Positions 3,811-58,299 of a DNA stretch of 64,000 bases are shown piece by piece. This DNA is from Candidatus Doudnabacteria bacterium. Lineage in GTDB: Bacteria; Patescibacteriota; Doudnabacteria; UBA920; O2-02-FULL-48-8. The notes beneath the pieces are model-generated. The model searched no databases. It was not told the origin of the DNA and saw nothing but the letters and a program-made list of their open reading frames with translations. Positions within the stretch are counted from its first letter, which is position 1. Every line of letters starts with the position of its first letter. The position numbers were made by a program, and so were the translations under genes. The stretch lies in assembly GCA_016186915.1 (NCBI GenBank), contig JACPKU010000004.1:3168-67167 (forward strand). Direction: 5' to 3'.

Positions 3811-3873
3811 TTAATAATTTCTAGTGAGCAAAGCTACTACAAACTACTCACTACTAACTACCAACTAATTTAT

Positions 3874-4245
3874 ATGGCTAGACAACAAGAACAACCAGAA
3901 ACAATCGTGGCGAGCGGGATGCGGATCGAGGGAGAACTGAAAAGCAACGGCAACATCCGGATTGACGGCGTGGTTGCCGGTAAAATTCAAACGGCGCACG
4001 ACATTATGGTCGGAGGAACAGCCCAGATTGACGCGGACATTAATGCGGAAAACGCCGTGGTTGCCGGGGTGGTTGCCGGCAACATCACGGTGAAGGGTTC
4101 AATTTTGATTATGGAAACAGGCAAGGTTGCCGGCAACATTAGCTGTGCTAATCTAGGCATCAGAGAAGGCGCTATCTTTTCTGGAAATTGCAAGATGAGC
4201 GAACAAAAACAAGTCGATCTTCAAAGTGAAGAAGAACAAGAGTAA
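3874..4245 (+). CDS. Bactofilin (polymer-forming cytoskeletal protein, CcmA-like)
   Basis: Beta-helical repeat pattern: IRIDGVVAGKIQ..IMVGGTAQIDADINAENAVVAGVVAGNITVKGSILIMETGKVAGNI. Confidence 0.7.
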   Translation: MARQQEQPETIVASGMRIEGELKSNGNIRIDGVVAGKIQTAHDIMVGGTAQIDADINAENAVVAGVVAGNITVKGSILIMETGKVAGNISCANLGIREGAIFSGNCKMSEQKQVDLQSEEEQE

Positions 4246-5168: not shown

Positions 5169-5242
5169 TGGAGCGGGTAACGGGAATTGAACCCGTCTCT
5201 CCTCCTTGGCAAGGAGGTGTAATACCGCTATACCATACCCGC
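5169..5242 (-). tRNA. tRNA-Gly (anticodon GCC)
   Basis: Cloverleaf on the minus strand. Anticodon stem-loop cctcc-ttGCCaa-ggagg, T-arm GGTTCAATTCC, encoded CCA. Confidence 0.85.
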
Positions 5243-5247
5243 ATTTT

Positions 5248-5324
5248 TGGTGCCGGAGATCAGAATCGAACTGATGACACGTCGCTCTTCAGGCGACTGC
5301 TCTACCACTGAGCTACTCCGGCGC
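5248..5324 (-). tRNA. tRNA-Phe (anticodon GAA)
   Basis: Minus-strand sequence gcgccggagtagctcagtggtagagcagtcgcctGAAgagcgac...ttcgattc...ccggcacca. Anticodon loop cuGAAga. Confidence 0.85.
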
Positions 5325-6005
5325 AATCCTTGGTTTTTGCAAGTATGCGTAACCTATTAACTTATCCTGCTCCAACGCGATCTTTATTTTAAAATACTTT
5401 CGACTCAAAAACAAGAGGTCTTTTCTGTGATACATCACATTAAAAATTTTTCTAGAATCTCCTTTCGTATATTCAAGATTTGATACTCCAACCCCCTTAT
5501 GAACAGAGCCTGTTAATCCGTAAAGTCTTTTCAATTCTGTCCTAAGCCATTTAATAAAATCGGGACTCGCAGAAGCAAATGATGTTTTAAATCCAAAACT
5601 TTTAGGCCATCTTTTATCCCAGAATGTATAAAATGTTCCATCTCCGTCAAATAAACCTCTTAAAAAGTCAGGAAAATATCTGTCAGGTATATCAATTTGT
5701 TTTATCGTCTTTGACTTTGCAACAGTTAAACCTATAGAATTTAAAAACTGATAAAATATTTTATCTCCAAACTGTACGAATAAATATTTCTTGTCAGTTT
5801 CTCCGCCTCTTACATGAGCGATGGTTTTATTACTTATTAAAAGGGCTCTCTTAAACTTATTAATCAATTCGATTTCTTTAGAACTAAATCCAATATGACG
5901 CTGATCTTTATGCAACCATCCGTCCGAAGTAATAAGACCGATTGCATAAGCAAAGTCCGAACTCCATTCAATTTTAACTTTTTGTTTAAATCGGCGGCTA
6001 ATCAT
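5313..6005 (-). CDS. LAGLIDADG family homing endonuclease (double-motif, free-standing)
   Basis: Two LAGLIDADG-type motifs about 100 aa apart: AYAIGLITSDGW and FLRGLFDGDGT. Located between tRNA-Phe and tRNA-Val. Confidence 0.7.
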   Translation of the reverse strand: MISRRFKQKVKIEWSSDFAYAIGLITSDGWLHKDQRHIGFSSKEIELINKFKRALLISNKTIAHVRGGETDKKYLFVQFGDKIFYQFLNSIGLTVAKSKTIKQIDIPDRYFPDFLRGLFDGDGTFYTFWDKRWPKSFGFKTSFASASPDFIKWLRTELKRLYGLTGSVHKGVGVSNLEYTKGDSRKIFNVMYHRKDLLFLSRKYFKIKIALEQDKLIGYAYLQKPRIAPE

Positions 6006-6061: not shown

Positions 6062-6138
6062 TGGTGGACGCTGAAGGATTCGAACCTTCGGCCTTCGCAG
6101 TGTAAATGCGACGCTCTAACCAGCTGAGCTAAGCGTCC
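6062..6138 (-). tRNA. tRNA-Val (anticodon TAC)
   Basis: Minus-strand sequence ggacgcttagctcagctggttagagcgtcgcatttacactgcga...ggttcgaatcc...cacca. Anticodon loop tuUACac. Confidence 0.85.
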
Positions 6139-6140
6139 TC

Positions 6141-6227
6141 TGGTGGGCACGGAGGGAGTCGAACCCTCAATCCTTTACAGGCGCATCCACCTCAAGGATG
6201 TGCGTATTCCAGTTCCGCCACGTGCCC
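6141..6227 (-). tRNA. tRNA-Leu (anticodon GAG), long variable arm
   Basis: Minus-strand sequence gggcacgtggcggaactgg...catcc-ttGAGgt-ggatg, a long variable arm, T-arm ggttcgactcc, and CCA. Confidence 0.8.
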
Positions 6228-6444: not shown

Positions 6445-7023
6445 ATGGAGTTTAAGAAGTTCATGGTGTCCATCAACGTCAGCGATGACAAGATGGACGA
6501 GCTCGTGCGGGCCGGGTTCCCCACGCAGCGTCCGACGTTCGCGGACATGCGTGCCCGCCGGCTGGCCCATGTCGAAGCGGCAGAATCGATTGGCCGCGAC
6601 GCCTTACGGCTGGACCGCGTCGATGACCTCGGCGAGATCCCTGACAGCGGGCGCGTGGTCTTCACGCGCGAAGGCCAGGAGAAAGTGTCCTTTGCCCAAG
6701 TGGCGAAGGACGCCAAGAAGCTCGGCTTCGCGATGAGCGCGGCCTACGTCGAGAAGGCCCCGGGCAAGTCGGCGCGTCTGCGGATCTGGTGGGAACGCGG
6801 CGAGGAAGCCGTGCCGGTTGAACCGACAGGTGCAATGCGCTTCCACCTGGACGGAATGTTGAAGAGGGCGTATCAGCACCTGTATGCCTTCGACAACCGG
6901 GACACGGATGGGTCGTTCACGTTCAACGCGTCGCACACGATGGACGAGAATGCCCGCCGTGGCGTGCGCGACCTGCGCATCGGGGAAGGCCGCATGGCCT
7001 GCCTCCTGCGCGAGGACGCGTAG
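6445..7023 (+). CDS. Hypothetical protein encoded by a GC-rich, compositionally foreign ORF (192 aa)
   Basis: Strong SD (ggagga) 5 nt upstream of the ATG. Codons end overwhelmingly in G/C (gag ctc gtg cgg gcc ggg ttc ccc acg cag cgt ccg), unlike flanking genes. No recognisable family. Confidence 0.5.
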   Translation: MEFKKFMVSINVSDDKMDELVRAGFPTQRPTFADMRARRLAHVEAAESIGRDALRLDRVDDLGEIPDSGRVVFTREGQEKVSFAQVAKDAKKLGFAMSAAYVEKAPGKSARLRIWWERGEEAVPVEPTGAMRFHLDGMLKRAYQHLYAFDNRDTDGSFTFNASHTMDENARRGVRDLRIGEGRMACLLREDA

Positions 7024-9876: not shown

Positions 9877-10581
9877 TTGTTACTGTTGCTTATAGTAAAC
9901 ATGGACATTCTACATATTCAGAAACTAAACAAAATTTTCCTTAAAGCGACCCACGATAAGCTGCCAATCAGCTACAAACTCGGCGTGCTTGTTCTGTTAA
10001 TAAGTTTATTAGGCCTCAGCGCGCCTCATCAAACAATCGCCCTCGATTCCGAAGCAGAACTGCAAGCCATTGTCTTCGTCCAAGGCGACCAATATGAATA
10101 CCTCAATCTGCTGAAGGAGCTGGCCGAGAAAAATTATCGGATCGATAAACTGAAAAATGAACTGAACAAACAAAGAACTCTGGCCGGCGCCGTGCGAGTG
10201 TATCTGGAAGCTTACCGCTCGCCATTAGCTGGTCACGTCGAAACCCTGATTAAGGCCCGTAACTGGAAAAAGATTGTGGCCTTGGCCAACGCGGAAAGTT
10301 CCCTGTGCCGGAACTACCCGGAAACCACTGCCAACTGTTGGGGAGTAGGCGGTTCAGATTTATGGGTCATGGGCAGCAATTTGGATGAAGGCATTCTGGC
10401 CATGGATGAGTTTTTAATTACTTCTCCGAAAAAATCCGAAATAAAATATACTGATATGAGCTTTGAGCAAATGAACGGCCTATACAAACAGCCAGCCAGA
10501 GACCATTGGGTTGAAAACACTCTGATGATTTATAATGATCTGGAGGCTATCGAAAATAATTTGGCAGGGAACAGTATTTAA
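9877..10581 (+). CDS. Secreted protein, paralog of 8865..9479 (lysozyme-like ES motif)
   Basis: N-terminal TM helix, and LANAESSLC...NCWGVGG, aligning with the paralog's AESQMC...NCWGIGG. Confidence 0.4.
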   Translation: MLLLLIVNMDILHIQKLNKIFLKATHDKLPISYKLGVLVLLISLLGLSAPHQTIALDSEAELQAIVFVQGDQYEYLNLLKELAEKNYRIDKLKNELNKQRTLAGAVRVYLEAYRSPLAGHVETLIKARNWKKIVALANAESSLCRNYPETTANCWGVGGSDLWVMGSNLDEGILAMDEFLITSPKKSEIKYTDMSFEQMNGLYKQPARDHWVENTLMIYNDLEAIENNLAGNSI

Positions 10582-34382: not shown

Positions 34383-35977
34383 ATGCTTACTCCAAACGAT
34401 CGGAGTATCAGGATTAAGCAGGTTTATTCCGAGCTTGATAGAAAATTCGAAGAAGAACGGACCCAAAACCAGGCGCAGAATTTGGGGGTATCTTATATTA
34501 GCCTCTACGGGTTTCCGATTGATCACAATGTCTTGGGCATGATTTCCAAAGAAACCGCAGAGGCTACTGGTGTAATCGCGTTTTATAAGGAAGGGCGAAA
34601 CATTAAACTCGGCGCGCTTAACCCGTCGTCGGAGGTTAATAAGGTAGTTGAAGGTTTAAAGGCCAATAGCTTTTATGTCCAGCTTTATCTGATTTCGCAG
34701 AGCAGTTTTGAACACGCCTTAACTTTTTATAACCGGATTGTGAAAGCAGACAGGAAGTCGCAGGACATAAAGATTGAAGACAAGGTTTCGGAAGTAAAAA
34801 TCAATTCTTTAAAAGAGCTGGCAAATAAATTGTATAACGTGTCAGCCACGGAACTGATCCAGCTGGTTTTGGGATCGGCCCTGCCGGTAGACGCGTCTGA
34901 CATTCATCTAGAGCCGGGCGTTTCCAGCATCAAGGTGCGCTTCCGAATTGATGGCGTGTTGCAGGATGTCGCCACCTTGCCGAAAGATGAGTATCATCAA
35001 TTGGTTTCCCGAATTAAAATTTTGTCAAAACTCAAGTTAAATATAGTGACCAGTCCGCAAGACGGCAGTTTTAGTTTGACTTATAACCAGCAACCGGTGG
35101 ACATTCGCGTGTCTGTTTTGCCTTCGGCTTTCGGTGAGTCTTTCGTGCTTCGGATCTTGCGGCAGGACAAACAGGAGCTGAAGTTTGACGACTTGGGCAT
35201 TAGCGGGCTGGCGCAGAAAAATTTATTGGAACAGATGCGCAAACCCAATGGCATGATTTTAACCACCTGTCCCACTGGCAGCGGCAAGACCAGATTATTA
35301 CCTTGGAAGACCCCGTGGAGTATAGGATTCCAGGAGTCACCCAAACCCCGGTTGATAAAAAGGGAGGGTTAAGCTTTGCTCAGGGCTTGCGCGCTATCGT
35401 CAGGCAAGACCCAGACATTGTGATGGTGGGCGAGATGAGGGATCTAGAAACCGCAGAAACCGCAGCGCAAGCAGCGCTGACTGGACACATTGTGCTGTCC
35501 ACCCTGCATACCAATGACGCGGCTAGCGCCATCCCCAGGCTTTTGGATTTGGGGGTGAAGCCGTTTGTTTTGGCTCCCGCTATCAATGCAGTGATTGGTC
35601 AGCGGTTGGTGCGCCGCATTTGTTCGGCGTGCAAGACAGAATACACGCCGGAAAAAAATTTACTGGCCCGGGCCGAGCTGATTTTAAGCGGAATTTCCAA
35701 AACCGCCAAAGTAAAACTGCCGGCCAAACTGATTTTTTACCACAGTACTGGCTGTGAGGCCTGCAAAGGACTGGGCTACAAAGGCCGGGTGGGCGTATAC
35801 GAGGTATTTGTGGTGAATGAAGCAGTGGAAAAATTGATTCATCAGCAAGCCATTACCACGGAAATAAAAAGGCAAGCGGTAACTGATGGCATGGTGACCA
35901 TGGCGCAAGATGGACTGCTGAAAGCCCTGGCCGGAATCACCGATGTTGAAGAAGTGTTCCGGGTGACCGAGGAATAG
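34383..35977 (+). pseudogene. Type II/IV secretion/pilus ATPase (GspE/PilB family), disrupted by a ~40-nt deletion plus frameshift near 35293
   Basis: ORF 34383..35372 carries the T2SSE N-domain and Walker A (CPTGSGKT), then goes out of frame. ORF 35303..35977 continues with [28 protein letters not shown] and the Cys-tetrad. The segment between GSGKT and [10 protein letters not shown] (normally ~15 aa) is missing. Confidence 0.65.
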
Positions 35978-36163: not shown

Positions 36164-36715
36164 ATGAATGAACACAAATTTAATCCTGAAAAACAACCAG
36201 CCGCGAAAGCCGGTCAAATATTTGATGCTTCCCCTGAAGATGCCAGAGCAATTGCTGTCATCAGAAAACGAGGATGGGAAACCACATATGTAGATGAGGA
36301 GAAAGGAATAACGCGAGCAGATATTGATAGTCGGGGGATGGACGATGAAGACCGAATACAAAGGCACCAAGAGAGATTAAAAGAACCAAGCGAAAACGCG
36401 CATACCTGGGTCGTGAAAGTTGAGAGCCAGGTCGTGGGATTTTGCGAAGCGGTAAGCGGAGATTATAATGAAATTAAAGCAGTTTACATCCTACCAGAAT
36501 TTCAATCACAGGGCCATGGTCAGCAGCTTATGCAACAAGCCATAGAATGGATAGGACGAGATAAGGATATTTATCTGGACGTGGTGGACTTCAATACCCG
36601 AGCCATAGAGCTGTATAAGAGATTAGGTTTTGAGCTGACAGATAAAAGAGAGTTCGTGCAGTTTAAATCGGGCAAATTTATGCAAGTATTGGTAATGATA
36701 AAAAGACATGACTAA
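36164..36715 (+). CDS. GNAT family N-acetyltransferase
   Basis: Acetyl-CoA binding motif region QSQGHGQQLMQQAIEW. Confidence 0.7.
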   Translation: MNEHKFNPEKQPAAKAGQIFDASPEDARAIAVIRKRGWETTYVDEEKGITRADIDSRGMDDEDRIQRHQERLKEPSENAHTWVVKVESQVVGFCEAVSGDYNEIKAVYILPEFQSQGHGQQLMQQAIEWIGRDKDIYLDVVDFNTRAIELYKRLGFELTDKREFVQFKSGKFMQVLVMIKRHD

Positions 36716-37616
36716 GGAATTTCAGAAAAAATTGATTCTGATTGATGGACACGCGTTACTACACCGCGCTTATCACGCCCTTCCGGAAATGAACGGGCCG
36801 GACGGATTCCCCACGGGTGCGATCTTTGGGTTTTTATCAATGCTGTTTAAAGCGCTTGCAGACATTAAGCCTACCCATGCGTTAGTGACTTTTGATGTGC
36901 CCGGGCCGACTTTTCGTGATAAATTGGCCGCGGATTATAAAGCTACTAGAAAACCCACGCCAGATGACCTGACTGCGCAGCTCCCTAAATTGAAGGAAAT
37001 TTTAGAAGCCTTGGAAATTCCCGTCTATGAAAAAGCTGGGTATGAGGCAGATGATTTACTAGGAATCATTTCTCACAAAACCCCTAAGGATGTTTTAAAT
37101 ATTATTGTCACTGGCGATTTGGATATGTTGCAGTTGATTAACAGCAACACCCAAGTTTATCGGTTTAAAATTGGCTTTTCTGACATTCAAGTTTTTGATG
37201 AAAATAAAATGCTGGAGATTTATGGGCTGAAACCTTCGCAGTGGGTGGACTACAAAGCCATTCGAGGCGATACCTCGGACAATATTCCCGGGGTCAAAGG
37301 CATTGGGGAAAAGGGTGCTATGGATTTAATCAAAACCTTTGGCAGTTTGGATGGCGTGTATGCCGCGGCAGAATCAGGCAGCAGTAAGATTAAGCCGGCC
37401 ACTTTGAAAAAATTATTAGCTGACAAAAACAGCGCTTATTTGTCCCAAAAACTGGCGAACATTGATCGAAAAGGTGATTTGTCCGCCGAAGGCGGATCCG
37501 CCTTCGGCGGAGATTTTTACTTTGAACAATGCAAGCTTGGCAACTATAATAAAGACAACGTGATCAAACTCCTGCACGGTCTTGGCATCAAGGCCTTAAC
37601 TAACCGTCTACCCTAA
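36708..37616 (+). CDS. polA: DNA polymerase I, 5'-3' exonuclease (FEN) domain ORF
   Basis: LILIDGHALLHRAYHAL..., the metal-binding acidic clusters, and a helix-hairpin-helix. It ends at a TAA at 37614. Confidence 0.8.
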   Translation: MTKEFQKKLILIDGHALLHRAYHALPEMNGPDGFPTGAIFGFLSMLFKALADIKPTHALVTFDVPGPTFRDKLAADYKATRKPTPDDLTAQLPKLKEILEALEIPVYEKAGYEADDLLGIISHKTPKDVLNIIVTGDLDMLQLINSNTQVYRFKIGFSDIQVFDENKMLEIYGLKPSQWVDYKAIRGDTSDNIPGVKGIGEKGAMDLIKTFGSLDGVYAAAESGSSKIKPATLKKLLADKNSAYLSQKLANIDRKGDLSAEGGSAFGGDFYFEQCKLGNYNKDNVIKLLHGLGIKALTNRLP

Positions 37617-37669: not shown

Positions 37670-39178
37670 TTGGTGAGATTGCTTCGGCGCAAGCTGCTCG
37701 CAAAGACAAGAACTATGATTATCAAGAACAAAGAACAAGCAATAATCGCAGGCTATCTTCTCAACCCGGGCCAAAGGCATTACCAAGTCGGCGGTCCGGC
37801 ATCTTGGAAGCACTTATTTAGTAAGCTTAGAGTCAAAAAGCTGCTGAAAATATTCGAAGAGATTGAATTGCCACTGATGCCAGTCTTGGCCAAAATGGAA
37901 AAAAGAGGTATTAAACTTGATCTCAAACAGCTGCGACAGTTGAGCAAAAAATTAACCAGCCGGATAGACAAGCTGACCAAACAAATTTATCGCCAAGCCG
38001 GCAAAAAGTTTAATGTTGCTTCTCCGATTCAACTGCGGGATGTGTTGTTTGAGCACTTGAAGATTCCAACAGAAAACTTGCGCAAAACCGGCAAAACCAA
38101 AGCTTTGTCCACGGCGGCCACAGAACTGGAAAAGTTGCGGGAATTGCACCCGATTATTGATTTGATTTTGGAATATCGAGAACTGACCAAGCTGAAATCC
38201 ACTTATGTCGATGCCTTGCCGGAACTGGTGGGGGCGGACGGCAGATTGCATACCAAATACAGTCAGACGGTGGCGGCCACGGGGAGGCTTTCTTCCTCTG
38301 ATCCCAATTTACAAAACATCCCAATTCGTACCGAGCTTGGCAACCAGGTGCGCAAAGCTTTTGTGGCAGAAAAGGGATTTGTCTTAGCTTCTCTGGATTA
38401 TTCCCAAATTGAACTGCGCATTGCCGCCACCTTATCAGGCGATAAAGAAATGATCAAGATTTTCTCCGCCGGAGGCGGATCCGCCTTTGGCGGAAAAGAC
38501 GGCGATTTTCACGCCTCCACCGCTTCGAGAATTTTTGACACTCCTGAGTCAAAAGTAACACCCAGACAGCGCCGGGACGCCAAGACCATCAATTTCAGTG
38601 TGCTTTACGGCGTGTCGGCTTTTGGCTTATCCTCCCGCTCTGAAATGAGCCAAGCCGAGGCCCGGGATTATATCAACAAATATTATGAGGTGTTTAAAGA
38701 TTTAAAAAAATATATAGACACCACAATCAAACAAGCGCATGAAGATGAATTTGTGACTAATCCTTTGGGACGGATCAGAAATTTTGCCGAGATTAATTCG
38801 CCTGTTTATCCAATCCGAGCTGCGGCAGAGCGCGCGGCGTTTAATATGCCGCTCCAATCTTTGGCCGCTGACATCATGAAAATGGCCATGATTCGTATAG
38901 ATGAATTTTTGCAAAATTCATCTATCTCTGATTTAATCTCCCCCTCGGGGGGAGATGCCGCCAAAGGCGACAGAGAGGGGAAAACTGCTGTAAACGACGA
39001 GTGTCGCTTACTCCTGTCAGTGCATGATGAATTGGTGTTTGAAATTAAAAAAGGCAAAGAAAAACAATACTTGCCGAAAATCAAAAAAATTATGGAAACG
39101 GTTTATCAATTATCAGTGCCAGTAACGGTGGATGTAAAAGTGGGAAAGAACTGGATGGAGATGAAAGAATTGGAATAG
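37670..39178 (+). CDS. polA: DNA polymerase I polymerase domain ORF, in a different frame from the upstream exo ORF
   Basis: Pol A motifs DYSQIELRI (motif A), RRDAKTINFSVLYG (motif B) and HDELVFE (motif C). It starts in the vestigial 3'-5' exo region (IIAGYLLNPG). The frame is open back to 37604 and overlaps the upstream ORF end. Confidence 0.8.
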   Translation: MVRLLRRKLLAKTRTMIIKNKEQAIIAGYLLNPGQRHYQVGGPASWKHLFSKLRVKKLLKIFEEIELPLMPVLAKMEKRGIKLDLKQLRQLSKKLTSRIDKLTKQIYRQAGKKFNVASPIQLRDVLFEHLKIPTENLRKTGKTKALSTAATELEKLRELHPIIDLILEYRELTKLKSTYVDALPELVGADGRLHTKYSQTVAATGRLSSSDPNLQNIPIRTELGNQVRKAFVAEKGFVLASLDYSQIELRIAATLSGDKEMIKIFSAGGGSAFGGKDGDFHASTASRIFDTPESKVTPRQRRDAKTINFSVLYGVSAFGLSSRSEMSQAEARDYINKYYEVFKDLKKYIDTTIKQAHEDEFVTNPLGRIRNFAEINSPVYPIRAAAERAAFNMPLQSLAADIMKMAMIRIDEFLQNSSISDLISPSGGDAAKGDREGKTAVNDECRLLLSVHDELVFEIKKGKEKQYLPKIKKIMETVYQLSVPVTVDVKVGKNWMEMKELE

Positions 39179-39194
39179 TGAATGTGGAATATAG

Positions 39195-39225
39195 AAAAAC
39201 CGCCTAAGGTTAGGCGGCTTTTTTG
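39195..39225. terminator. Bidirectional terminator
   Basis: aaaaaccgcctaaggttaggcggcttttttg. It overlaps the rpsT stop. Confidence 0.6.
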
Positions 39226-39482
39226 TTAGAGGCAATTAATTTGCTCAATCTCGATTTATGACGGTTGGCGTTGTTTTTCTTTATTATGCCTTTCTTGGCG
39301 GCCTTGTCATAGGCTGAGAAGACGTTCTCCAAGGCTTTTCTAGCTTCTTCCAACTTTCCAGCAGTTGTTAATTTTTTAAATTGCTTAACAGCTGCTTTGA
39401 CTTTGTTCTGGGTAAGAAGATTGAATTTTCGTCTTTTTAGATTTTGTCTGGCGGCCTTGATGGCGGATTTGGTGGTGGGCAT
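39210..39482 (-). CDS. rpsT: 30S ribosomal protein S20
   Basis: MPTTKSAIKAARQNLKRRKFN is the canonical S20 N-terminus. Confidence 0.85.
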   Translation of the reverse strand: MPTTKSAIKAARQNLKRRKFNLLTQNKVKAAVKQFKKLTTAGKLEEARKALENVFSAYDKAAKKGIIKKNNANRHKSRLSKLIASNKKAA

Positions 39483-39629
39483 ATATTTAGTGAGTAGTTA
39501 GTAGTTTGTAGTGAGTAGAAAACAAGTAAAATAAGATCCAGCTAAGTCTAACAAAAGATAGGTGACAAATCAAGAGGCGGAGGGGGGCTGAAAGTTGATG
39601 GTTCAGCCCCCTAACTTGGCAGTCATGGT

Positions 39630-39929
39630 TTAGCAGCGTTTCTCAAAGTTGAGAACGATGGCCGGCTGGCCAGTGTGGTTTTGTGGCGCGCAGCGTGCGG
39701 CGAATCGCTGGCGCTGTGTTTGGTAAGGAATGTTCCTTTGTATCCTCTTGAGGCTAAGCGCAACAAGCGCCAGGCGAACCCTTTCGTACTCCTCCGCATC
39801 CAGAACTTCAAACACAGCTGACATTTCTGGATTGGGCAGTTGAGGCTTGAACCACTGGCTTGAGATGTGGTAGCAGGTTTGGCCAAAGATGTTCACCTTA
39901 CGGATGACTGCATAAAGCGTGTCAAACAT
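39630..39929 (-). CDS. Hypothetical protein, GC-rich ORF with a strong SD
   Basis: aggagg 5 nt upstream of the ATG. G/C-ending codon bias unlike its neighbours. No recognisable domain. Confidence 0.35.
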   Translation of the reverse strand: MFDTLYAVIRKVNIFGQTCYHISSQWFKPQLPNPEMSAVFEVLDAEEYERVRLALVALSLKRIQRNIPYQTQRQRFAARCAPQNHTGQPAIVLNFEKRC

Positions 39930-40098
39930 GCGTCCTCCTCTTAATCACAAAATACCAGTCGTTGAGTTTTGCGTCAACTTATTTTAGTCTATGTCTTTTC
40001 ATTCTCTGCTTCTCGCGGGTGGCAGATTTAGTATTGGGCATAAGTTAGGTGATAGATGAATAGTTTAACAAAAAACGGATACATAATTAAGCGGACAG

Positions 40099-40866
40099 TT
40101 ATTCCCGAATTGTTGAGTCAACATATTTAAATAAAGCTTTTAATGTATTGGCAATATTTTTGTCTTCAATAATCACAGCTATGGGATTATTTTCAGAAAA
40201 AGAAAAAATGGCTGTTTTATCATCGTAAATATCAATCTCGGTATCAAAAGCATATTCTATTGGGATAAATTTGGTAATTCTGGCAACAGCCTTATCTCTT
40301 TTTTTACTTTCGCGCGACCAATCGGTGTCAGGAGCAATGTCGTAACATTTTATTCCAAGTTTAGCTCTTTTAGTAATATAATAGTAAACCCAATCAGCTC
40401 CCATTTTTTTAAACACAGCATCAGTACCAGTAAAATCATAAAGATTTTTTTCTTTATTATTCAGGAGAGTATCTTCATAGGCTTGCTTAATCCCCTCTAT
40501 TCCCTGAAAGAATTGAATTTTCGGAAAACTTATTTGCTTGTTTCGTACTGCTTCAATTTCCGGCAGTATTTTTTCTATTTCTGCTTTACTTTTTGATAAA
40601 TCAAGTTTCTTGTTTTCTATATAATTTACCAATAAACGTGGAGAAATAGATTGGAATTCCAAAATTTTTCCTTGTTCCGTTGAAGAAGCAAGCCCTTTTT
40701 CTATTAAAGATTTTAAAACTCCGTAAGCAGTGGTTCGGTTAAGTTTGGCCAATCTGGCAACTTCTTTGACCTTTAAAGAGGCATGTTCAAGTAGAATTGA
40801 CAACACAACTATTTCGTTATTGTTAAGATCTATATTTTTAATGAGTTGTTCTATTTGTTGTCTCAT
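40099..40866 (-). CDS. TrmB family transcriptional regulator
   Basis: N-terminal wHTH VLSILLEHASLKVKEVARLAKLNRTTAYGVLKSLIEKGL typical of TrmB. Confidence 0.65.
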   Translation of the reverse strand: MRQQIEQLIKNIDLNNNEIVVLSILLEHASLKVKEVARLAKLNRTTAYGVLKSLIEKGLASSTEQGKILEFQSISPRLLVNYIENKKLDLSKSKAEIEKILPEIEAVRNKQISFPKIQFFQGIEGIKQAYEDTLLNNKEKNLYDFTGTDAVFKKMGADWVYYYITKRAKLGIKCYDIAPDTDWSRESKKRDKAVARITKFIPIEYAFDTEIDIYDDKTAIFSFSENNPIAVIIEDKNIANTLKALFKYVDSTIRE

Positions 40867-40875
40867 AATAAAGTC

Positions 40876-40903
40876 ATTATAGAATTTTGTCTAATTTTGT
40901 CAA
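40876..40903 (-). promoter_or_regulatory. Promoter for the TrmB-like gene: TTGACA-N16-TATAAT on the minus strand
   Basis: Minus-strand sequence ttgacaaaattagacaaaattctataat. It lies within an outward-facing inverted TTGTCAAC/TTGACAA pair. Confidence 0.55.
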
Positions 40904-40919
40904 CAATTTTGGAAAATAA

Positions 40920-40947
40920 TTGACAAATCAGCCTAAGTAATTAAGAT
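40920..40947 (+). promoter_or_regulatory. Divergent promoter TTGACA-N16-TAAGAT for the radical-SAM-like gene
   Basis: ttgacaaatcagcctaagtaattaagat. It uses the same TAAGAT -10 as the promoter at 6265. Confidence 0.5.
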
Positions 40948-40981
40948 ATAATTGTCCGTTAGAAAGGACAAAGGAGGGTTT

Positions 40982-41614
40982 ATGAAAAAAGTGGTGGCGG
41001 TGCAGTTGCCAGCGCCATATTGCGGCATTGGCTGTTCATTCTGTCGAACGGCAAATGAGCATGGTGGCGATGTCAGCGCCGTTCGACGGGCTCTTTCCGA
41101 GCAGCTTGCGGACTGTGAAGAAGTCTATCTGACCAGCGTAGGCGAGACCGGGAATTGTGCCGAGTTCCAGGACATTGTGCAGATGTTGCAGGAACGAGGC
41201 ATTCCGGTATCGGTACTCTGCGCAACGGCGCAGTCAGTAGTGGCTGGTCTCAAGCGAGTTGAGATCAGTTACGAGGAAGATGAACCAACGGCGTTCACAG
41301 CCCCGCTGGCGATAGCGAAGGCTAGGAAGCTTGGGGTCCCGGTGGTCCTGTCCGTGGTGGACAAGGGCAACAAGGCTATCAATCCCCAGGCACTCACCGA
41401 GCGGTTCAATGTGTCAGGGGTGCTGATCCGAGCGTTGCAGGCTGAGGGGCACTCACGCTCCTGCCATGGTCACAGCTCGTTCTGGGTCAGTGATTCAGCA
41501 GAGCTTGGCGCGTTCCCGGTCGGAGCATATCGGGAGCTTGCCAGCATTGGGGTCTCGGCTGTCTGCATCGACCACCTCGGACGGCAAGTTCAGTACTTAG
41601 GAGCAGCCGCCTGA
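40982..41614 (+). CDS. Small radical SAM-like protein (CxxxCxxC), GC-rich
   Basis: YCGIGCSFC (C-x3-C-x2-C) near the N-terminus. SD aggaggg before the ATG at 40982. G/C-rich codon usage. Confidence 0.45.
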   Translation: MKKVVAVQLPAPYCGIGCSFCRTANEHGGDVSAVRRALSEQLADCEEVYLTSVGETGNCAEFQDIVQMLQERGIPVSVLCATAQSVVAGLKRVEISYEEDEPTAFTAPLAIAKARKLGVPVVLSVVDKGNKAINPQALTERFNVSGVLIRALQAEGHSRSCHGHSSFWVSDSAELGAFPVGAYRELASIGVSAVCIDHLGRQVQYLGAAA

Positions 41615-41712
41615 CTTCAATGGGCACGCCCTGTTTGTTTACAGGACACGGCCCCGTTTTTTTATTTCAACTTGTACTTCTCCGTCCTTTGCTACTACCG
41701 GATGATCACGAT

Positions 41713-41748
41713 TTGACAACCACCATGCGATAGGTGGGTGGTTGTCAA
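41713..41748. repeat. Conserved intergenic hairpin element, copy 2
   Basis: ttgacaaccaccatgcgataggtgggtggttgtcaa. Confidence 0.6.
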
Positions 41749-41788
41749 GTTAGATGACTTTGAATTTTTAGAGATTTTAATACATCAC

Positions 41789-43808
41789 ATCACTTATGTC
41801 TTTTCATCCGTTGTTTGTCGCGGATGCTGGCGATTTGATCGCGAAGGCCGGCGGCTTGTTCAAAGTCCAGATTTCTGGCCGCCAAGTCCATTTGATCCCG
41901 CAATTCTTCGATCAGGTACGCGACTTCCTGCCGGGTCATTTTGTTTAAGTCGATCCGTGATCCGTGATCCGTGATCCGTGACTCCTCTTTCTTACCCGCA
42001 AGACGTGATTCTTTCACTGCTTTTTCTATGCCCTTGGGAGTAATGCCATACTTTTTATTATAGTCTTCCTGAATCTTGCGTCGCCGTTCAACTTCGGCAA
42101 TAGCCCGTTGCATAGAACCCGTGATTTTGTCTGCATACATAATCACATGGCCTTCGATGTGGCGGGCTGCCCGGCCCATGGTTTGAATGAGTGAAGTGTC
42201 GGAGCGCAGGAACCCTTCTTTGTCAGCATCCAGGATCGCCACCAGCGACACTTCTGGCAGATCCAGACCTTCGCGCAGAAGATTGATGCCCACCACCACG
42301 TCATAAATGCCTAATCTTAGATCGCGCAGAATCTCTAAGCGTTCCAAGGTGTCCACGTCAGAGTGCAGGTAATGCACCTTGATGTTGTATTCAGTCAAAT
42401 ACTGCGCCAGTTCCTCTGCCGTGTTTTTGGTTAAGGTGGTGACCAGCACGCGTTGTTTTCCGCCGGCAGGCAGGTTCACTCTTTTCTGGATTTCTTCCAT
42501 CAAATCATCCACTTGGTTTTTCGTTGGTCTGACTTCTATCTTGGGATCCAAAAGCCCGGTCGGGCGGATAAGTTGCTGCGCCACTTGTTTGGAAATTTTT
42601 AACTCCCGGTCTTTTACCGGGGTGGCCGACACAAATATGGTTTGGCTAATTCGTTTTTCAAACTCTTCAAATTTTAAAGGCCGATTGTCAGCGGCAGAAG
42701 GCAGGCGAAACCCATAATCAATCAAAGTTTGTTTGCGGGACTTGTCTCCCAAATACATGCTCCCAATTTGCGGCAGGGTCATGTGCGATTCGTCTATAAA
42801 TAACAGAAACTCATCTGGAAAATAATCCAAAAGCGTGGAAGGCGGCTCACCGGGAGAGCGAAAATCCATGTGCCGCGAGTAGTTTTCAATGCCGTTGACA
42901 TAACCGGTTTCCAGCATCATCTCAATGTCAAAGTTCGTGCGCTGTTCAATGCGCTGGGCTTCGATCGCCCTGTCTTTACTTTTGAAAAATTTGACTTGTT
43001 TTTTTAGCTCGTCGCGGATGTTGTCTACGGCCTTAAACAATTTTTCTTTGGTGGTGACAAAGTGTTTGGCCGGGAAGACGGTCAGATGTTGAATCGAACC
43101 TAGATCGCTGCCGGTGAGAGGATCGTGAATGGATATTTTTTCGATTTCATCCCCGAAGAAGTTGACTCGATAGATTTTGTCCTCGGAAGCCGGGATCAGT
43201 TCAACAGTGTCGCCGCGGACGCGGAAATTGCCCCGCTCAAGATTGACATCGTTGCGGATGAATTGCAGGTCAGTGAGTTTGCGCAAGAGCTTGTCTCGTT
43301 TGCTGCTTGCCCCAACTTTTAGAGGGACAGACAGGTCCAGATAATCACCCGGACTGCCCAAGCCGTAAATGCAGGAGACCGAAGCCACGATTAAGACATC
43401 CGAGCGAGACAGCAGGCTTTGCGTGGCCGCGTTTCTTAACTTGTCAATTTCTTCATTAATTTCCGTTTCCTTTTCGATGTAGGTATCGGAGCGCGGAATA
43501 TAGGCCTCGGGCTGGTAGTAATCATAGTAGGAGACGAAGTAGTGCACGGCGTTGTCCGGGAAGAAATCCTGAAATTCGCTGGCTAATTGGGCAGCTAAGG
43601 TTTTGTTATGCGAAATGACCAGAGTCGGCTTATTAATTTTTTCCACCACATTGGCCATAGTAAAAGTCTTCCCACTACCCGTCACGCCCAAAAGCGTCTG
43701 GTAGCGGAATTTTTTATGCAACCCTGAAACCAATTTTTCTATGGCCTGCGACTGGTCGCCAGCCGGTTTGAAATTTGAACGCAGCTTGAAATGCATAGCA
43801 ACCTTCAT
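41789..43808 (-). CDS. uvrB: Excinuclease ABC subunit B
   Basis: [12 protein letters not shown] Walker A, helicase motifs, and a C-terminal UVR domain ([13 protein letters not shown]). Confidence 0.95.
41952..41979. repeat. Tandem heptamer (GATCCGT)x4 in frame inside uvrB
   Basis: gatccgtgatccgtgatccgtgatccgt. On the minus strand it encodes TDHGSRI. Confidence 0.8.
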
Positions 43809-46023: not shown

Positions 46024-49000
46024 ATGACCTCAAAAGGAAAAATGGCTAATTTAAGCCTTAATTTTAAAAGCCCCTCCAAATTCAAGACTGGGAGAAAGTT
46101 CTTTACCCAGTTCCATGATGTCATGGAAATGCCTAATTTGATTGAGGTTCAGCTCAATTCCTATCAGTGGTTTTTGGAAAAGGGACTCAAGGAATTGTTC
46201 GATGAAATCAATTCAATCAAAGATTTTACAGGTAAAAATTTGGAACTGTTCTTTGGGAAGTACTTTCTCGACAAACCCAAATACGACGAGAAAACCGCAA
46301 AAGAACGAAACACCACCTATGAAGCGCCTCTGTACGTTTCGGTAAAACTGGCCAACAAAGCCACTAACAAAACCAAAACACAGGATGTCTACATAGGTGA
46401 TTTTCCTTTAATGACTCCCCGCGGCACTTTTGTCATCAACGGGGTTGAGCGAGTGGTGGTCTCTCAGCTGGTTAAATCCCCCGGCGTATTTTTCAGCGGC
46501 GAAGCCGCCCGGGGCAGGAATTGGTATGGTGCAAAAATAATTCCGAATAGGGGCGCCTGGCTGGAACTGGAAACTGATCTCAACGGCGTGCTTAGTGTGA
46601 AAATTGATCGCAAGCGTCGTATCCCGGTAACTGCCCTGATGCGGGTTTTTGGCTATACAACTGACGAGGAGATATTGGCGGCCGTGGCAGACATAGACAC
46701 CAATCCCGACATGCGCTACCTGCAAGCCACGTTGGAAAAAGATCCTTCCAAAAATCGAGACGAAGGATTTAAAGAAGTTTATAAAAGAATCCGTCCGGGA
46801 GATTTGGCAACTGTAGACAACGCCCGCTCTTTGATCGAGGCGATGTTTTTCCAAGCCGACAGATATGATTTGTCAGAAGTCGGAAGATTCAAACTCAATC
46901 AACGACTTAATATTCTTGACCGCCAAGACCATATTCTCACCAAACAAGATTTAACGGATATCATCCGAGAAGTTATTCGATTGAACAATTCACAAGAAGG
47001 CTGGGACGACATCGATCATTTGTCCAATCGAAGAGTGCGCGCAGTCGGGGAACTGATCCAAAGTAAATTTAGAATCGGACTGGCCCGGATGAGCAGAATC
47101 GCCAAAGATCGAATGAGCTTAGCCGATCTTGAGACTGTAACGCCAGCTCAACTCATCCACGTCCGCCCGATTGTCGCCGTCATTCAGGAATTTTTCTCTT
47201 CTTCACAACTCTCTCAGTTTATGGACCAGACCAATCCATTGGCGGAGCTGGAACACAAACGAAGGCTTAGTGCTATGGGTCCGGGCGGGCTTTCCCGTGA
47301 GCGCGCGGGATTTGAAGTGCGAGACGTCCACCGTTCTCACTATGGTAGGCTTTGTCCAATCACCACACCGGAAGGCCCGAACATCGGCTTGGTTGCGCAC
47401 TTGGCCAGCTATGCCAAAATTAATGAATTCGGTTTTATTGAAACCCCGTACCGCAAGCTTTTGAAGCAGGTCCCCAATGACGGCAAGAGCGCAGTGGGAC
47501 ATTTGAGCCTGAATGATATTTCTGACGGAAACGAGCAATTGATTGTGGCGGCTGATAAGGAGATTACCAAAGAAATTGCCAAGAGGTTGATGGAAAACAA
47601 GAGCTTGGCTCAAGTTTTGATTAAGCCTGTGGTGACAGACGAAGTTGAGTATTTGGATGCCTATGAAGAAGAACAAATGGTGATTGCCCAAGCCACCGCT
47701 GAGTTTGATGAGCGCGGGCATTTTACCGAACCCCGGGCTTCGGTGCGCGTGCACGGCGTGCCTTCCATCGCATCCACTTCTGACATTGACTATATTGAAG
47801 TCTCTCCCAAACAGATTATTTCGATCACCACTTCTTTAATTCCTTTTTTGGAGCACGATGACGCCAACCGCGCGTTGATGGGTTCGAACATGCAGCGCCA
47901 AGCAGTGTCTTGCATTAAACCAGAGGCCCCGGTAGTCGGCACTGGCGTGGAGGCGAAAGCCGCCTACGATTCCGGACAGGTTGTGATCGCGGACACTGAC
48001 GGCACAGTCAGCTCAGTTACCGGCGACAAAATAGTGATTGCGGAAAAGGCCGGTAAAAAAAGAGAATATTACCTGCAGAAGTTTATTCGCTCCAACACTT
48101 CCACGTCCATCAATCAACACCCGATCGTGGAAAAGGGGCAAGTTGTGCAAGCCGGCGATCCGATTGCCGACGGAGCAGCCACGGAAAATGGAGAACTGGC
48201 CTTGGGCCAGAATTTGTTGGTCGCGTTTGTCTCTTGGGAGGGCGGCAATTATGAAGATGCGATTTTAATTTCCTCTCGGGTGGTGGAAGAAGATCGCTAT
48301 TCCTCGATTCATATTGAAGATTTTAAAGTTGATGTCCGAGACACCAAGCTGGGACCGGAAATCATTACTCGGGACATTCCTAATGTCGGCGAAGAAAAAT
48401 TAAAGGATTTGGACGAAAACGGAGTGGTGAGGATTGGGGCGCAGGTGAAAGCTGGCGACATTCTGGTCGGCAAAATTACGCCGAAAGGCGAAACTGACCT
48501 GACTGCAGAAGAAAAATTGCTGCGAGTAATTTTTGGCGAGAAGTCGAGAGATGTAAAAGACACTTCCTTATCCCTGCCTCACGGCGAATACGGCAAGGTG
48601 GTCCACATCAGAGAGTTCTCCCGCGAACAGGGAGACAAACTGCCTTCTGGCGTGATCAAATCGATTCAAGTATCTGTGGCAGTTTTGCGGAAAATTCAGG
48701 TCGGAGACAAAATGGCCGGCCGCCATGGAAACAAGGGGGTAATTTCTCGCGTCATTCCGATTGAGGATGTGCCGTTTACTCAAGACGGGACTCCGGTGGA
48801 TATTATTTTAAATCCTATGGGTGTGGCTAGTCGTATGAACATCGGACAGATTTTGGAAACTCACTTGGGATTCGCGGCAAAAAAGTTTAATTACAATATC
48901 GCCTCTCCGGCACTGGATGGCGTGCCTGAAGAAACCATTAAGTCGGAATTGAAGCGCGCTGGTTTTCCAGAAGACGGCAAAGTGGCTTTGTTTGACGGGA

Positions 49001-49518
49001 AAACCGGAGAACAATTTGCGGAAAAAGTTACCGTTGGCGTGATTTACATGCTTAAACTCCACCATTTGGTGGATGATAAGATGCACGCCCGCTCCACCGG
49101 TCCCTACTCTTTGATCACCCAGCAGCCCTTGGGCGGCAAGGCACAGTTCGGCGGCCAGCGATTTGGCGAAATGGAAGTCTGGGCCTTGGAAGGCTACGGC
49201 GCGGCCCATACTTTGCAGGAGATGTTGACCATCAAATCCGATGACGTGGTGGGCCGGGCTAAAACTTATGAATCAATCGTGAAAGGCGAACCGATTAAAA
49301 AGCCCAATGTCCCAGAGTCTTTCCGGGTTTTGGTCAAAGAGCTCCAATCCCTGTGTCTTAATGTAGAATTGGTCGGCGAGAAAAAACAAGAAGATATGGA
49401 GGCCAGTCCCGAGGGAGAAATTAAGGAGTTGGCCACTACTGATGAGAAGCTGGAAGTAGAGAAGGAAGTTGTAGGTGTGGATGATAAGCCGAAAAAGAAG
49501 CTAAAAAGTAACAAGTAA
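46024..49518 (+). CDS. rpoB: DNA-directed RNA polymerase subunit beta
   Basis: Conserved rpoB blocks throughout ([20 protein letters not shown], etc.). Confidence 0.97.
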
Positions 49519-54143: not shown

Positions 54144-54179
54144 TTGACAACTACCATGCGATAGGTGGGTAGTTGTCAA
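54144..54179. repeat. Conserved intergenic hairpin element, copy 3
   Basis: ttgacaactaccatgcgataggtgggtagttgtcaa. Confidence 0.6.
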
Positions 54180-57189: not shown

Positions 57190-58299
57190 TCAGGCAAGAG
57201 CAAGGTTCGGGTCAGCGACGAATGTCTTAGTGGGTAGTTTGCTCCGACGCTTCGGTCGGAGTCTCGACCTGACAATTTCAGCGTCGGGATAGTGGGTAGT
57301 GAGTAGTTTGTAATGAGCAGCAAGACCAATCATTGCGGCATTGTCTGTGCAGTATTTAAGCGGGGGGATACTGACTGAGAGCTGATAGCTCTTAGCTAAT
57401 AGCTTATAGCGAGCACGCAGGAGGTCGTTGGCTGCAACACCACCGCCGAGCATAATAGTTTTGGGTTGGTATTTTTTAATCGCTTGTTCTGTTTTGGCAA
57501 TCAGGACATCCACGATGGCTTGCTGGACGGAGGCGGCTAAGTTAGCTTTTAGCTTCCCTCTCTGTCCATTCCCGCGAAAGCGGGAATCTAATTTTTGGAC
57601 CTCATATAAAACAGCGGTTTTGAGTCCGGAAAAACTGAAATTTAAATCATCAGAATTAATCATCGGACGAGGAAACTTAAAAGCATGAGGATTGCCGTTT
57701 TTTGCAAGCTTGCTTAAATGCGGCCCACCAGGATATGGTAGTCCCAACAGTCTTGCGGTTTTATCAAATGCCTCGCCTGCAGCATCATCTACGGTTTCGC
57801 CAATGATTTTGTATTGCCCGTGTCCTCGCATCAGTACTAACATAGTATGCCCGCCGGAGACAATCAAGATAATCGCGGGAAATTTGACCCTTCGACTACG
57901 CTCAGGGATCAAACTTTTATGTTGCCTGAGCTTGTCGAAGGCAACGTTGGCATAGATGTGCGCCTCGAGATGATTAATCGGTAAAACCGGTTTGTTCAAG
58001 GTTAAGCCTAAAGTTTTGGCAGTGTCTACGCCCACCATAAGAGACGTCATCAGCCCTGGCCCTTTTGTTACTGCGATATAGTCAATTTCCGCAAGTTTGG
58101 TTTTGGCTTTCTTGAGGGCCAGGTTAATGGTTGGGATGATAGAAAGGACGTGTTCTCTGGCTGCCACTTCCGGCACTACCCCGCCGTATTTCAGGTGGGT
58201 CTTGGCCTGCGAGGCCAAGATATTGGATTTGATTTGGCCGTTAACGATTATGGCTGCGCCAGTTTCATCACAACTGGTTTCAAGGGCGAGTATTGTCAT
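57190..58299 (-). CDS. tsaD: tRNA N6-adenosine threonylcarbamoyltransferase TsaD (Kae1/Gcp)
   Basis: MTILALETSCDETGAAI, the His-His metal motif region, and SGGVAAN. It carries an internal repeat-derived insertion and a C-terminal extension. Confidence 0.9.
   Translation of the reverse strand: MTILALETSCDETGAAIIVNGQIKSNILASQAKTHLKYGGVVPEVAAREHVLSIIPTINLALKKAKTKLAEIDYIAVTKGPGLMTSLMVGVDTAKTLGLTLNKPVLPINHLEAHIYANVAFDKLRQHKSLIPERSRRVKFPAIILIVSGGHTMLVLMRGHGQYKIIGETVDDAAGEAFDKTARLLGLPYPGGPHLSKLAKNGNPHAFKFPRPMINSDDLNFSFSGLKTAVLYEVQKLDSRFRGNGQRGKLKANLAASVQQAIVDVLIAKTEQAIKKYQPKTIMLGGGVAANDLLRARYKLLAKSYQLSVSIPPLKYCTDNAAMIGLAAHYKLLTTHYPDAEIVRSRLRPKRRSKLPTKTFVADPNLALA
57901..57942. repeat. ~42-bp hairpin repeat, copy II (in frame inside tsaD)
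   Basis: ctcagggatcaaacttttatgttgcctgagcttgtcgaaggc. The minus strand encodes FDKLRQHKSLIPER. Confidence 0.7.

Follow-up and report, generated by a model that had tools for sequence, protein, structure and literature searches.

A chimeric uvrB–rpsT remnant between two cargo genes in a Candidatus Doudnabacteria genome

The uvrB–rpsT interval and its counterparts in related genomes

The 64,000-nt stretch of contig JACPKU010000004.1 analysed here (the window) belongs to a Patescibacteria (Candidate Phyla Radiation, CPR) metagenome-assembled genome of Candidatus Doudnabacteria; the matching NCBI proteins carry locus tags HYW51_008xx, and the nearest UvrB relatives are labelled Saccharibacteria. 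Our subject is the interval between uvrB and rpsT, and in particular a short remnant within it that combines parts of both genes. Read along the minus strand, uvrB is followed by a plus-strand gene for a 210-aa protein, a gene for a TrmB-like regulator, an unannotated stretch, an orphan open reading frame (ORF) of 99 aa (ORF99) and rpsT, with plus-strand polA beyond (coordinates in Table 1).

In the window, the gap from uvrB to rpsT measures 2307 nt, compared with 94–156 nt in five relatives (L002, 94 nt; L092, 141 nt; L173, 156 nt; L174, 140 nt; the 25.9-kb JGI contig 3300056388, 156 nt). Flanks are visible in L174 and the JGI contig, and both have the same order ruvA-uvrB-rpsT-polA. The junction between the uvrB stop and the −35 box of L002 (TCTTGATTTGT...) found its best match in the window at 39575–39549, as far from the rpsT ATG as in L002, with a score that is non-significant when taken alone. 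Alignments of the relatives' spacers to the 2.3-kb gap scored within the null, and the orthology of the rpsT promoter is thus one of positional colinearity only. By comparison with these relatives, the segment 39578–41789 is an insertion of about 2.2–2.3 kb. ORF99 is part of this extra DNA, given the length of the gap relative to the short spacers and the colinearity of the rpsT promoter with that of L002. The original prediction was therefore right to see an insertion, for which the five relatives carry empty sites, and right about its contents (a TrmB-like gene, divergent promoters, a radical-SAM-like gene and a hairpin), but it set the size at about 1.8 kb and placed ORF99 just outside.

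Other relatives have longer or rearranged spacers. Those of L096 and L098 measure 280 and 534 nt, those of L097, L094 and L095 hold 2.1–3.1 kb of unrelated cargo, and in L093 rpsT is inverted and adjoins other cargo. In L095 and L093 the spacer contains or adjoins a TrmB-like regulator with divergent cargo. This variation marks the uvrB–rpsT spacer as a hotspot. No duplicate of a uvrB tail or an rpsT head was found in the spacers of L094–L098, which include three gaps of more than 2 kb (L094, L095 and L097).

The genome-collection scan yielded only two close relatives, L001 and L002, whose contigs end 225–263 nt after uvrB. A metagenome scan with the UvrB C-terminal alignment returned nothing closer than 57% among the matches listed, and supplied the more distant uvrB–rpsT loci. 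An assembly artefact was considered and rejected: unitigs from four sequencing runs, each an independent set, reproduce the layout of the window at 100% identity.

The L001 contig has features of its own. Immediately after the uvrB stop it carries a 57-nt palindromic element (gtcatcctgaacgaatgtgaaggatctc/gagattcttcgctacgctcagaatgac; within 10014–10229), past which come the promoter and leader of rpsT and then a degenerate head of the gene beginning with ATT (IPNTKLSIKALQ). The contig ends 30 nt further on, and this head is not interpretable.

A uvrB tail joined to an rpsT head

A diverged copy of the end of uvrB lies in the gap on the same strand, as had been predicted. Over 32 nt, positions 39990–40021 are 81% identical to 41795–41826, with one stretch of 13 nt (TATGTCTTTTCAT) copied exactly, and in frame the copy reads ...REKQRMKRH. 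When the final 63 nt of uvrB were aligned to the 2307-nt gap, the score was 36, compared with 19.1 ± 2.4 (maximum 33) for 1000 dinucleotide shuffles (Gumbel p ~7e-5); the same query reached at most 24 in 158 tiles of real sequence from the rest of the window. The copy had been drawn from 39986 to 40040, and the uvrB-like part of that span holds, but it stops near 40017–40021. From there, 40018–40066 copies the start codon region and leader of rpsT: 40020–40066 agrees with 39461–39507 at 70% (score 35, reached in 0 of 1000 shuffles). The consensus of the clade for the rpsT start (ATGCCNAAYACNAARTCNGCC) has two sites in 64 kb, where 0.01 are expected, namely rpsT itself (1 mismatch) and the remnant (0 mismatches). 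Both alignments claim 40020–40029, because the parent sequences share a short motif.

Codons for Lys and Arg are rich in A, and such composition could produce a likeness by chance, with no duplication at all. An unrelated site inside the ORF at 46024–49518 does score 30 against the uvrB-like half, for which the true site scores 33. Yet the comparison with shuffled sequence, the check that the original prediction had proposed, went clearly against chance: none of 1000 dinucleotide shuffles reached the observed score of either half, which refutes this explanation at p < 1e-4 per half. Moreover, each flanking gene has its own independent match here, and the two matches lie end to end on one strand in a single reading frame. 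We consider a chance origin extremely improbable.

The 63-nt remnant is a recombination joint, in which rpsT codon 8 runs in frame into the final 12 codons of uvrB. On the coding strand, the leader and head of rpsT come first and the tail of uvrB second, the reverse of the chromosomal order (B'::A'). With X and Y denoting the intervening cargos, this is the order that a duplication joint leaves (A–X–B'::A'–Y–B), not that of an attL/attR pair. At the joint, uvrB (CAAATCGCCAGCATC) and rpsT (CAAATCCGCCATC) have a short imperfect motif in common, the parents sharing AAATC(C)GCCA.

The copied region extends upstream of the remnant. Its rpsT leader copy is preceded by a promoter-like 29-mer (40090–40062) with only three equal-or-better 29-mers in 128 kb, although its gapped alignment alone is non-significant. 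Because this 29-mer resembles the rpsT promoter region, each cargo can be said to have a uvrB stop on one side and an rpsT-promoter-like copy on the other. Past the stop codon of the remnant, extension of the similarity gave nothing significant. An apparent 12-nt insertion of GTGAT repeats, which would create the present stop, is anecdotal.

When the remnant was compared with the working genes over 17 codons, 8 steps were synonymous and 3 non-synonymous, and third positions account for 8 of the 11 differences, in line with the mostly synonymous differences noted earlier. Neutral change would give such a bias with P = 1.8e-4; if only one branch decayed neutrally, as in a duplicate formed in situ, P = 0.007. 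The rpsT head of the remnant is the clade consensus (MPNTKSA), whereas the resident rpsT is derived (MPTTKSA); the uvrB tail of the remnant has the length of that in L001 (...H[KR]L-x-stop), two codons longer than the resident tail. Because of the synonymous bias, the consensus head and the L001-type tail length, the comparison suggests that each copy evolved within a functional gene of a separate lineage before a recent joining brought them together. This agrees with an origin of one uvrB terminus in another lineage.

Low non-synonymous change could also mean that the chimeric 20-codon ORF is itself maintained, as a small gene or as a regulatory decoy that keeps the leader and start of rpsT, whichever route produced it. 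The ORF is intact, has its native ATG with a leader copy and a promoter-like copy, and is followed downstream by ORF99, itself equipped with a promoter-like site and a Shine-Dalgarno sequence. On the other hand, it was found in this population only, where all copies are 100% identical and so carry no comparative sign of selection, and 20 open codons are not improbable by chance. We therefore regard its maintenance as improbable.

Routes to the joint

Ordinary recombination at short similarities, joining two spacer alleles without any self-integrating element, is the explanation we prefer, and we give it about an even chance of being correct. Two diverged alleles of the uvrB–rpsT spacer would have existed in related lineages, one with cargo X (the TrmB-like and 210-aa genes) and the other with cargo Y (ORF99). 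DNA from one allele would then have been incorporated by homology-facilitated illegitimate recombination (HFIR), which needs no recombinase: one end would have been anchored by homology in a flanking housekeeping gene, and the other joined illegitimately at the short imperfect motif common to the uvrB tail and the rpsT head. Such a joint would have duplicated the interval from the end of uvrB to the start of rpsT. The resulting layout on the minus strand is uvrB with a first tail, X, the promoter-like and leader copy of rpsT, the rpsT head fused to a second uvrB tail, Y, and finally the rpsT promoter, leader and gene. The passage between lineages, the side of the donor and the uptake of DNA are what we infer from this layout, as is the regulation of the cargo considered below.

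HFIR in natural transformation has been described in Acinetobacter, S. pneumoniae and P. stutzeri (review, PMC3240628). There, as here, DNA is added beside a conserved anchor, one end is homologous and the other lies at short or micro-homology, no recombinase gene is involved, and fragments of the recipient may be duplicated at the joint. In contrast to those cases, the event at uvrB–rpsT would be read from a fossil joint alone, and parts of two housekeeping genes are duplicated where recipient DNA would be deleted. HFIR is also the mechanism proposed for C-terminal displacement and orphan 3' ends in the effector-immunity arrays of type VI secretion system (T6SS)/Rhs loci (PMC5361080; Jackson et al., 2009, as cited there). 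In those arrays a module arrives downstream of a conserved gene body with a new 3' end, the old end is displaced downstream as a remnant, and repeated events stack cargo. The present locus differs in that a DNA-repair gene stands beside a ribosomal-protein gene with no toxin system, only 11–12 codons are displaced without functional protein polymorphism, and the remnant is continuous with a copied start of the gene downstream.

Several points weigh against this preferred account. No allele with X only or Y only was found, the closest sampled relatives being ~19–20% diverged in UvrB protein. The selection test drew on 17 codons with 11 differences, and the synonymous bias could also stem from selection on the micro-ORF. 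No crossover or breakpoint was detected within uvrB and rpsT, where synonymous sites are saturated relative to all relatives. The homologies of spacer and promoter are weak. The exact crossover is not placeable, and the joint codon ACC needs a later substitution or a donor-specific codon. Finally, HFIR is a route of naturally transformable bacteria, and for this organism transformability is presumed; some Patescibacteria are naturally transformable.

A tandem duplication in situ would give the same topology. Slipped or unequal recombination at the uvrB-tail/rpsT-head motif would have duplicated ~155 nt of tail, spacer and head within one lineage, and X and Y would have been inserted later and independently, one into each spacer copy. 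Short homology at the joint fits this sequence of events, the spacers of relatives accept insertions, and insertion into a redundant spacer copy would do no harm. Classical join points of tandem duplications have the same form, with a downstream sequence fused to an upstream one (B'::A') where an imperfect repeat, between a few and ~14 nt long, occurs. Here, however, the cargo differs between the copies of the interval, and the changes separating them are mostly synonymous, which fits the union of two alleles better. That excess is unlikely under neutral decay, as the P of 0.007 above indicates; the rpsT head of the remnant is unchanged at 17 of 17 specified positions of the 21-nt consensus, despite ~20% divergence of the tail; and two further independent insertions would be needed, in the same lineage and at the same relative position. 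Since no parental alleles were found and no crossover was located, duplication in situ stays a serious rival, though we judge it unlikely.

The original prediction had instead taken the displaced uvrB terminus for the trace of an integrating element. According to this explanation, a site-specific element inserted at the 3' end of uvrB, supplied a replacement terminus and has decayed, its integrase now gone, with the 13-nt identity as the core of the attachment (att) site. Direct repeats with this 13-nt identical core (ATGAAAAGACATA) do bracket the TrmB/radical-SAM block, which is compositionally atypical (GC content at third codon positions, GC3, 0.23 for the TrmB-like gene; GC 0.585 for the radical-SAM gene) and missing from relatives. 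Islands and other integrative elements that target the 3' ends of tRNA or protein genes likewise leave the gene intact and bracket non-native DNA with direct repeats of its terminus. The displaced terminus beside the insertion therefore stands; the att interpretation fares much worse. As had been noted, an integrase is missing: when 46 ORFs across the window were scanned with Pfam, none had a domain typical of integrases, recombinases or transposases. The distal repeat is joined to a copy of the rpsT start, itself preceded by leader and promoter-like copies, and an att site does not account for such a chimera. The repeats bound only part of the insertion, leaving ORF99 outside although it too is extra DNA. 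Upstream of the core, homology shows at the protein level with mostly synonymous differences, which is how a genuine gene end would look. The same gene pair also occurs in four other genomes (L085, L087, L089 and L090), in none of which flanking direct or inverted repeats rose above the shuffle background or uvrB-like ends were present. An att origin is accordingly very unlikely in our estimation.

If the preferred joining of two alleles by HFIR is extended, the uvrB–rpsT spacer of this Patescibacteria clade might be a site where cassettes stack without a recombinase. Successive joins of the HFIR type would each add a regulator-plus-cargo cassette and copy the promoter, leader and start of rpsT, and the copied region might be co-opted for a 20-aa basic peptide and ORF99, possibly under autoregulation of the S20 type. 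We offer this extension as speculation with little chance of proving correct.

Cargo, neighbouring features and significance

The 210-aa protein of cargo X has a CX3CXΦC motif near its N-terminus, in which C14, C18, F20 and C21 are invariant in 10 homologues. An AlphaFold2 model (predicted local distance difference test, pLDDT, 90; predicted template-modelling score, pTM, 0.89) was compared with the PDB by Foldseek, and the top 47 matches were all radical SAM (S-adenosylmethionine) enzymes (BlsE, viperin-like, EpeE, TYW1, SkfB, SuiB and PFL-AE), with TM scores of at most 0.67. The modelled fold is thus that of a radical SAM protein. Sequence profiles gave only sub-threshold matches (QueE, E = 0.079; SkfB, E = 0.01; RlmN), with no Pfam match at E ≤ 0.1, PF04055 included, and no NCBIfam, PADLOC or PHROGs family. 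A prokaryotic viperin (pVip) was considered and rejected: PADLOC gave no match at E ≤ 1, the likeness is at fold level only and the protein is ~80 aa shorter. Minimal radical SAM enzymes such as QueE, PFL-activase and the viperin-like core share its motif and partial TIM-barrel fold, but the present protein matches no family model of Pfam, NCBIfam or PADLOC, and its clade is very small: the family comprises 37 clusters at E ≤ 1e-10 among 1.84 billion representatives.

A divergently transcribed TrmB-like partner of 254–255 aa accompanies this protein in 5 of 5 contexts (the window, L085/86, L087/88, L089 and L090/91), with unrelated surrounding genes. The partners split into two deep subfamilies, and that of the window is 51% identical to the partner of the L085 homologue. 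Its gene has the lowest GC3 of 52 ORFs (z = −2.6), and the radical-SAM gene and ORF99 lie at the high end. Like TrmB/TrmBL2 regulators with divergent targets, the protein has an N-terminal TrmB winged helix, is ~255 aa long and faces a palindrome in the divergent spacer. Unlike them, it has no match in Pfam or NCBIfam to a C-terminal effector (sugar-binding) sensor domain, and its similarity to TrmBL2 structures is weak and N-terminal only (E = 0.033).

A promoter scan of the divergent spacer gave 12 of 12 matches on the minus strand and 10 of 12 on the plus strand, and the palindrome at 40896–40927, which holds both −35 boxes, is a putative operator of the TrmB-like regulator. A dimer of the regulator would bind there and control both its own gene and the radical-SAM gene, which would make X a self-contained regulator-enzyme cassette. 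Inverted motifs (TGTTG/TTGTCAA...CAACA/TTGACAA) were read by eye in the homologous spacers; an automated palindrome scan picked them up only in L085, L089 and L095.

TrmB-like regulators of 252–263 aa with divergent, mutually unrelated cargo were also observed in L095 (1885–3413), L093 (2208–3832), L090 (153–1626) and L085 (2933–5038). The 186-aa cargos beside the regulators in L095 and L090 were considered as one protein and rejected as non-homologous.

The hairpin at 41713–41748 belongs to a two-copy family (TTGACAAC[C/T]ACC-atgcgataggtg-GGT[G/A]GTTGTCAA). The copies share the same loop and differ by a compensatory change in the stem, and each lies downstream of a plus-strand gene. The stem contains the TTGACAA/TTGTCAA half-site of the palindrome in the TrmB spacer. 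An Rfam scan of 39150–41900, this hairpin included, gave no match.

ORF99, the second cargo, matched only itself among 5.8 billion proteins, and had no match in Pfam, NCBIfam, PADLOC or PHROGs.

Table 1. Features of the uvrB–rpsT interval and its flanks (positions in the window)
Feature	Position	Strand	Description
uvrB, 672 aa	41790–43808	minus	Pfam UvrB_inter, UvrB, Helicase_C, UVR; 80–81% identity to L001 and L002; housekeeping flank of the variable spacer
Repeat copy 1, final 11 uvrB codons	41793–41826	minus	13 nt identical to copy 2 at 41795–41807
Hairpin with 12-bp stem, TTGACAACCACC-N12-GGTGGTTGTCAA	41713–41748		Second copy at 54144–54179; z ~ −5 on both strands
Weak terminator-like hairpin with T-run, after the radical-SAM gene	41619–41665	plus	Fold z = −2.0; absent from consensus scan calls
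Minimal radical-SAM-fold protein (modelled), 210 aa	40982–41614	plus	CX3CXFC, NGETG; GC 58.5%
Divergent promoter region	40867–40981		Palindrome TTTGTCAACAATTTT/AAAATAATTGACAAA at 40896–40927
TrmB-like winged-helix regulator, 255 aa	40099–40866	minus	PF01978, 43.7 bits (cutoff 25.6), residues 11–66
Promoter-like copy TTAATT-17-TAAACT	40062–40090	minus	Directly after the TrmB stop; 19/29 identical to the rpsT promoter region, 39545–39573
Copy of the rpsT 5' leader	40042–40066	minus	Directly upstream of the remnant ATG
Chimeric 20-codon ORF, MPNTKSATREKQRMKRHRLK and stop	39979–40041	minus	Intact; rpsT head (MPNTKSA) 40018–40041 and uvrB tail 39979–40017 in frame; recombination joint
Promoter-like TTGACG-17-TATTTT (with TG)	39949–39977	minus	Directly after the remnant stop, upstream of ORF99
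ORF99, orphan, 99 aa	39630–39929	minus	Strong AGGAGG (39934–39939) 5 nt before the ATG; GC3 0.61
GC-rich hairpin between ORF99 and the rpsT promoter	39583–39611		−21.7 kcal/mol, z = −3.7
rpsT promoter-like region TTGATT-17-TAGACT	39545–39575	minus	TCTTGATTTGT identical to the uvrB-stop/−35 junction of L002
rpsT leader of 7-nt repeat units (TAGTGAG on the plus strand)	39488–39518	minus	Member of a 3-copy leader family in the window
rpsT (ribosomal protein S20), 90 aa	39210–39482	minus	PF01649, E = 4e-21; other flank of the variable spacer

Further observations concern the flanks. The leader-like motif of rpsT (ACTACAAACTACTMACTACYMACTA), built of 7-nt units, occurs at 3836–3867 (plus strand), 39488–39512 (minus) and 57290–57314 (minus), giving 4 matches where 0 are expected; two copies lie directly upstream of start codons (those of the ORF at 3874 and of rpsT). 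The variable linker of uvrB contains a perfect, translated tandem repeat of the 7-mer GATCCGT in 4.3 copies (41952–41981). polA is split into a 5'-3' exonuclease ORF (36708–37616) and a polymerase ORF (37670–39178), with no Pfam match for a 3'-5' exonuclease domain. It is split too in L172, the closest rpsT relative, and forms a single ORF of 895–905 aa in L174 and the JGI contig. Both polA ORFs contain in frame a 30-nt GC-rich palindrome (37482–37511 and 38465–38494; TCCGCCGAAGGCGGA|TCCGCCTTCGGCGGA and a near copy). Each encodes GGSAFGG, and Logan unitigs break at 38468/9. These palindromes look like a palindromic repeat element tolerated within coding sequence.

Elsewhere in the window, a LAGLIDADG-like ORF (5313–6005, minus strand; GC3 0.29) lies within a tRNA cluster (tRNA genes at 5172–5322 and 6065–6227), its 3' end overlapping a tRNA gene by ~10 nt. 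A T2SSE/PilB-type ATPase, a single ORF of ~545 aa in relatives, is split into overlapping ORFs (34383–35372 and 35303–35977), which may reflect a frameshift, or a programmed or pseudogenised state. The strongest compositional outlier of the window is the ORF at 6445–7023 (GC 0.65; GC3 0.84, z = +3.6), which has long opposite-strand ORFs and no Pfam match.

CPR genomes are tiny and hold few recognisable mobile elements, and their gain of accessory genes is poorly documented. The uvrB–rpsT locus keeps a readable joint from what would be such a gain, between two housekeeping genes and without any recombinase. The mechanism is of a known kind and the example unusually legible; none of these results overturns current understanding. 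The variable uvrB–rpsT spacer could be followed in population data. The most useful by-product is the cassette in which a TrmB-like regulator accompanies a minimal radical-SAM protein of 210 aa; the family of this protein is very rare and offers enzymology a compact candidate.

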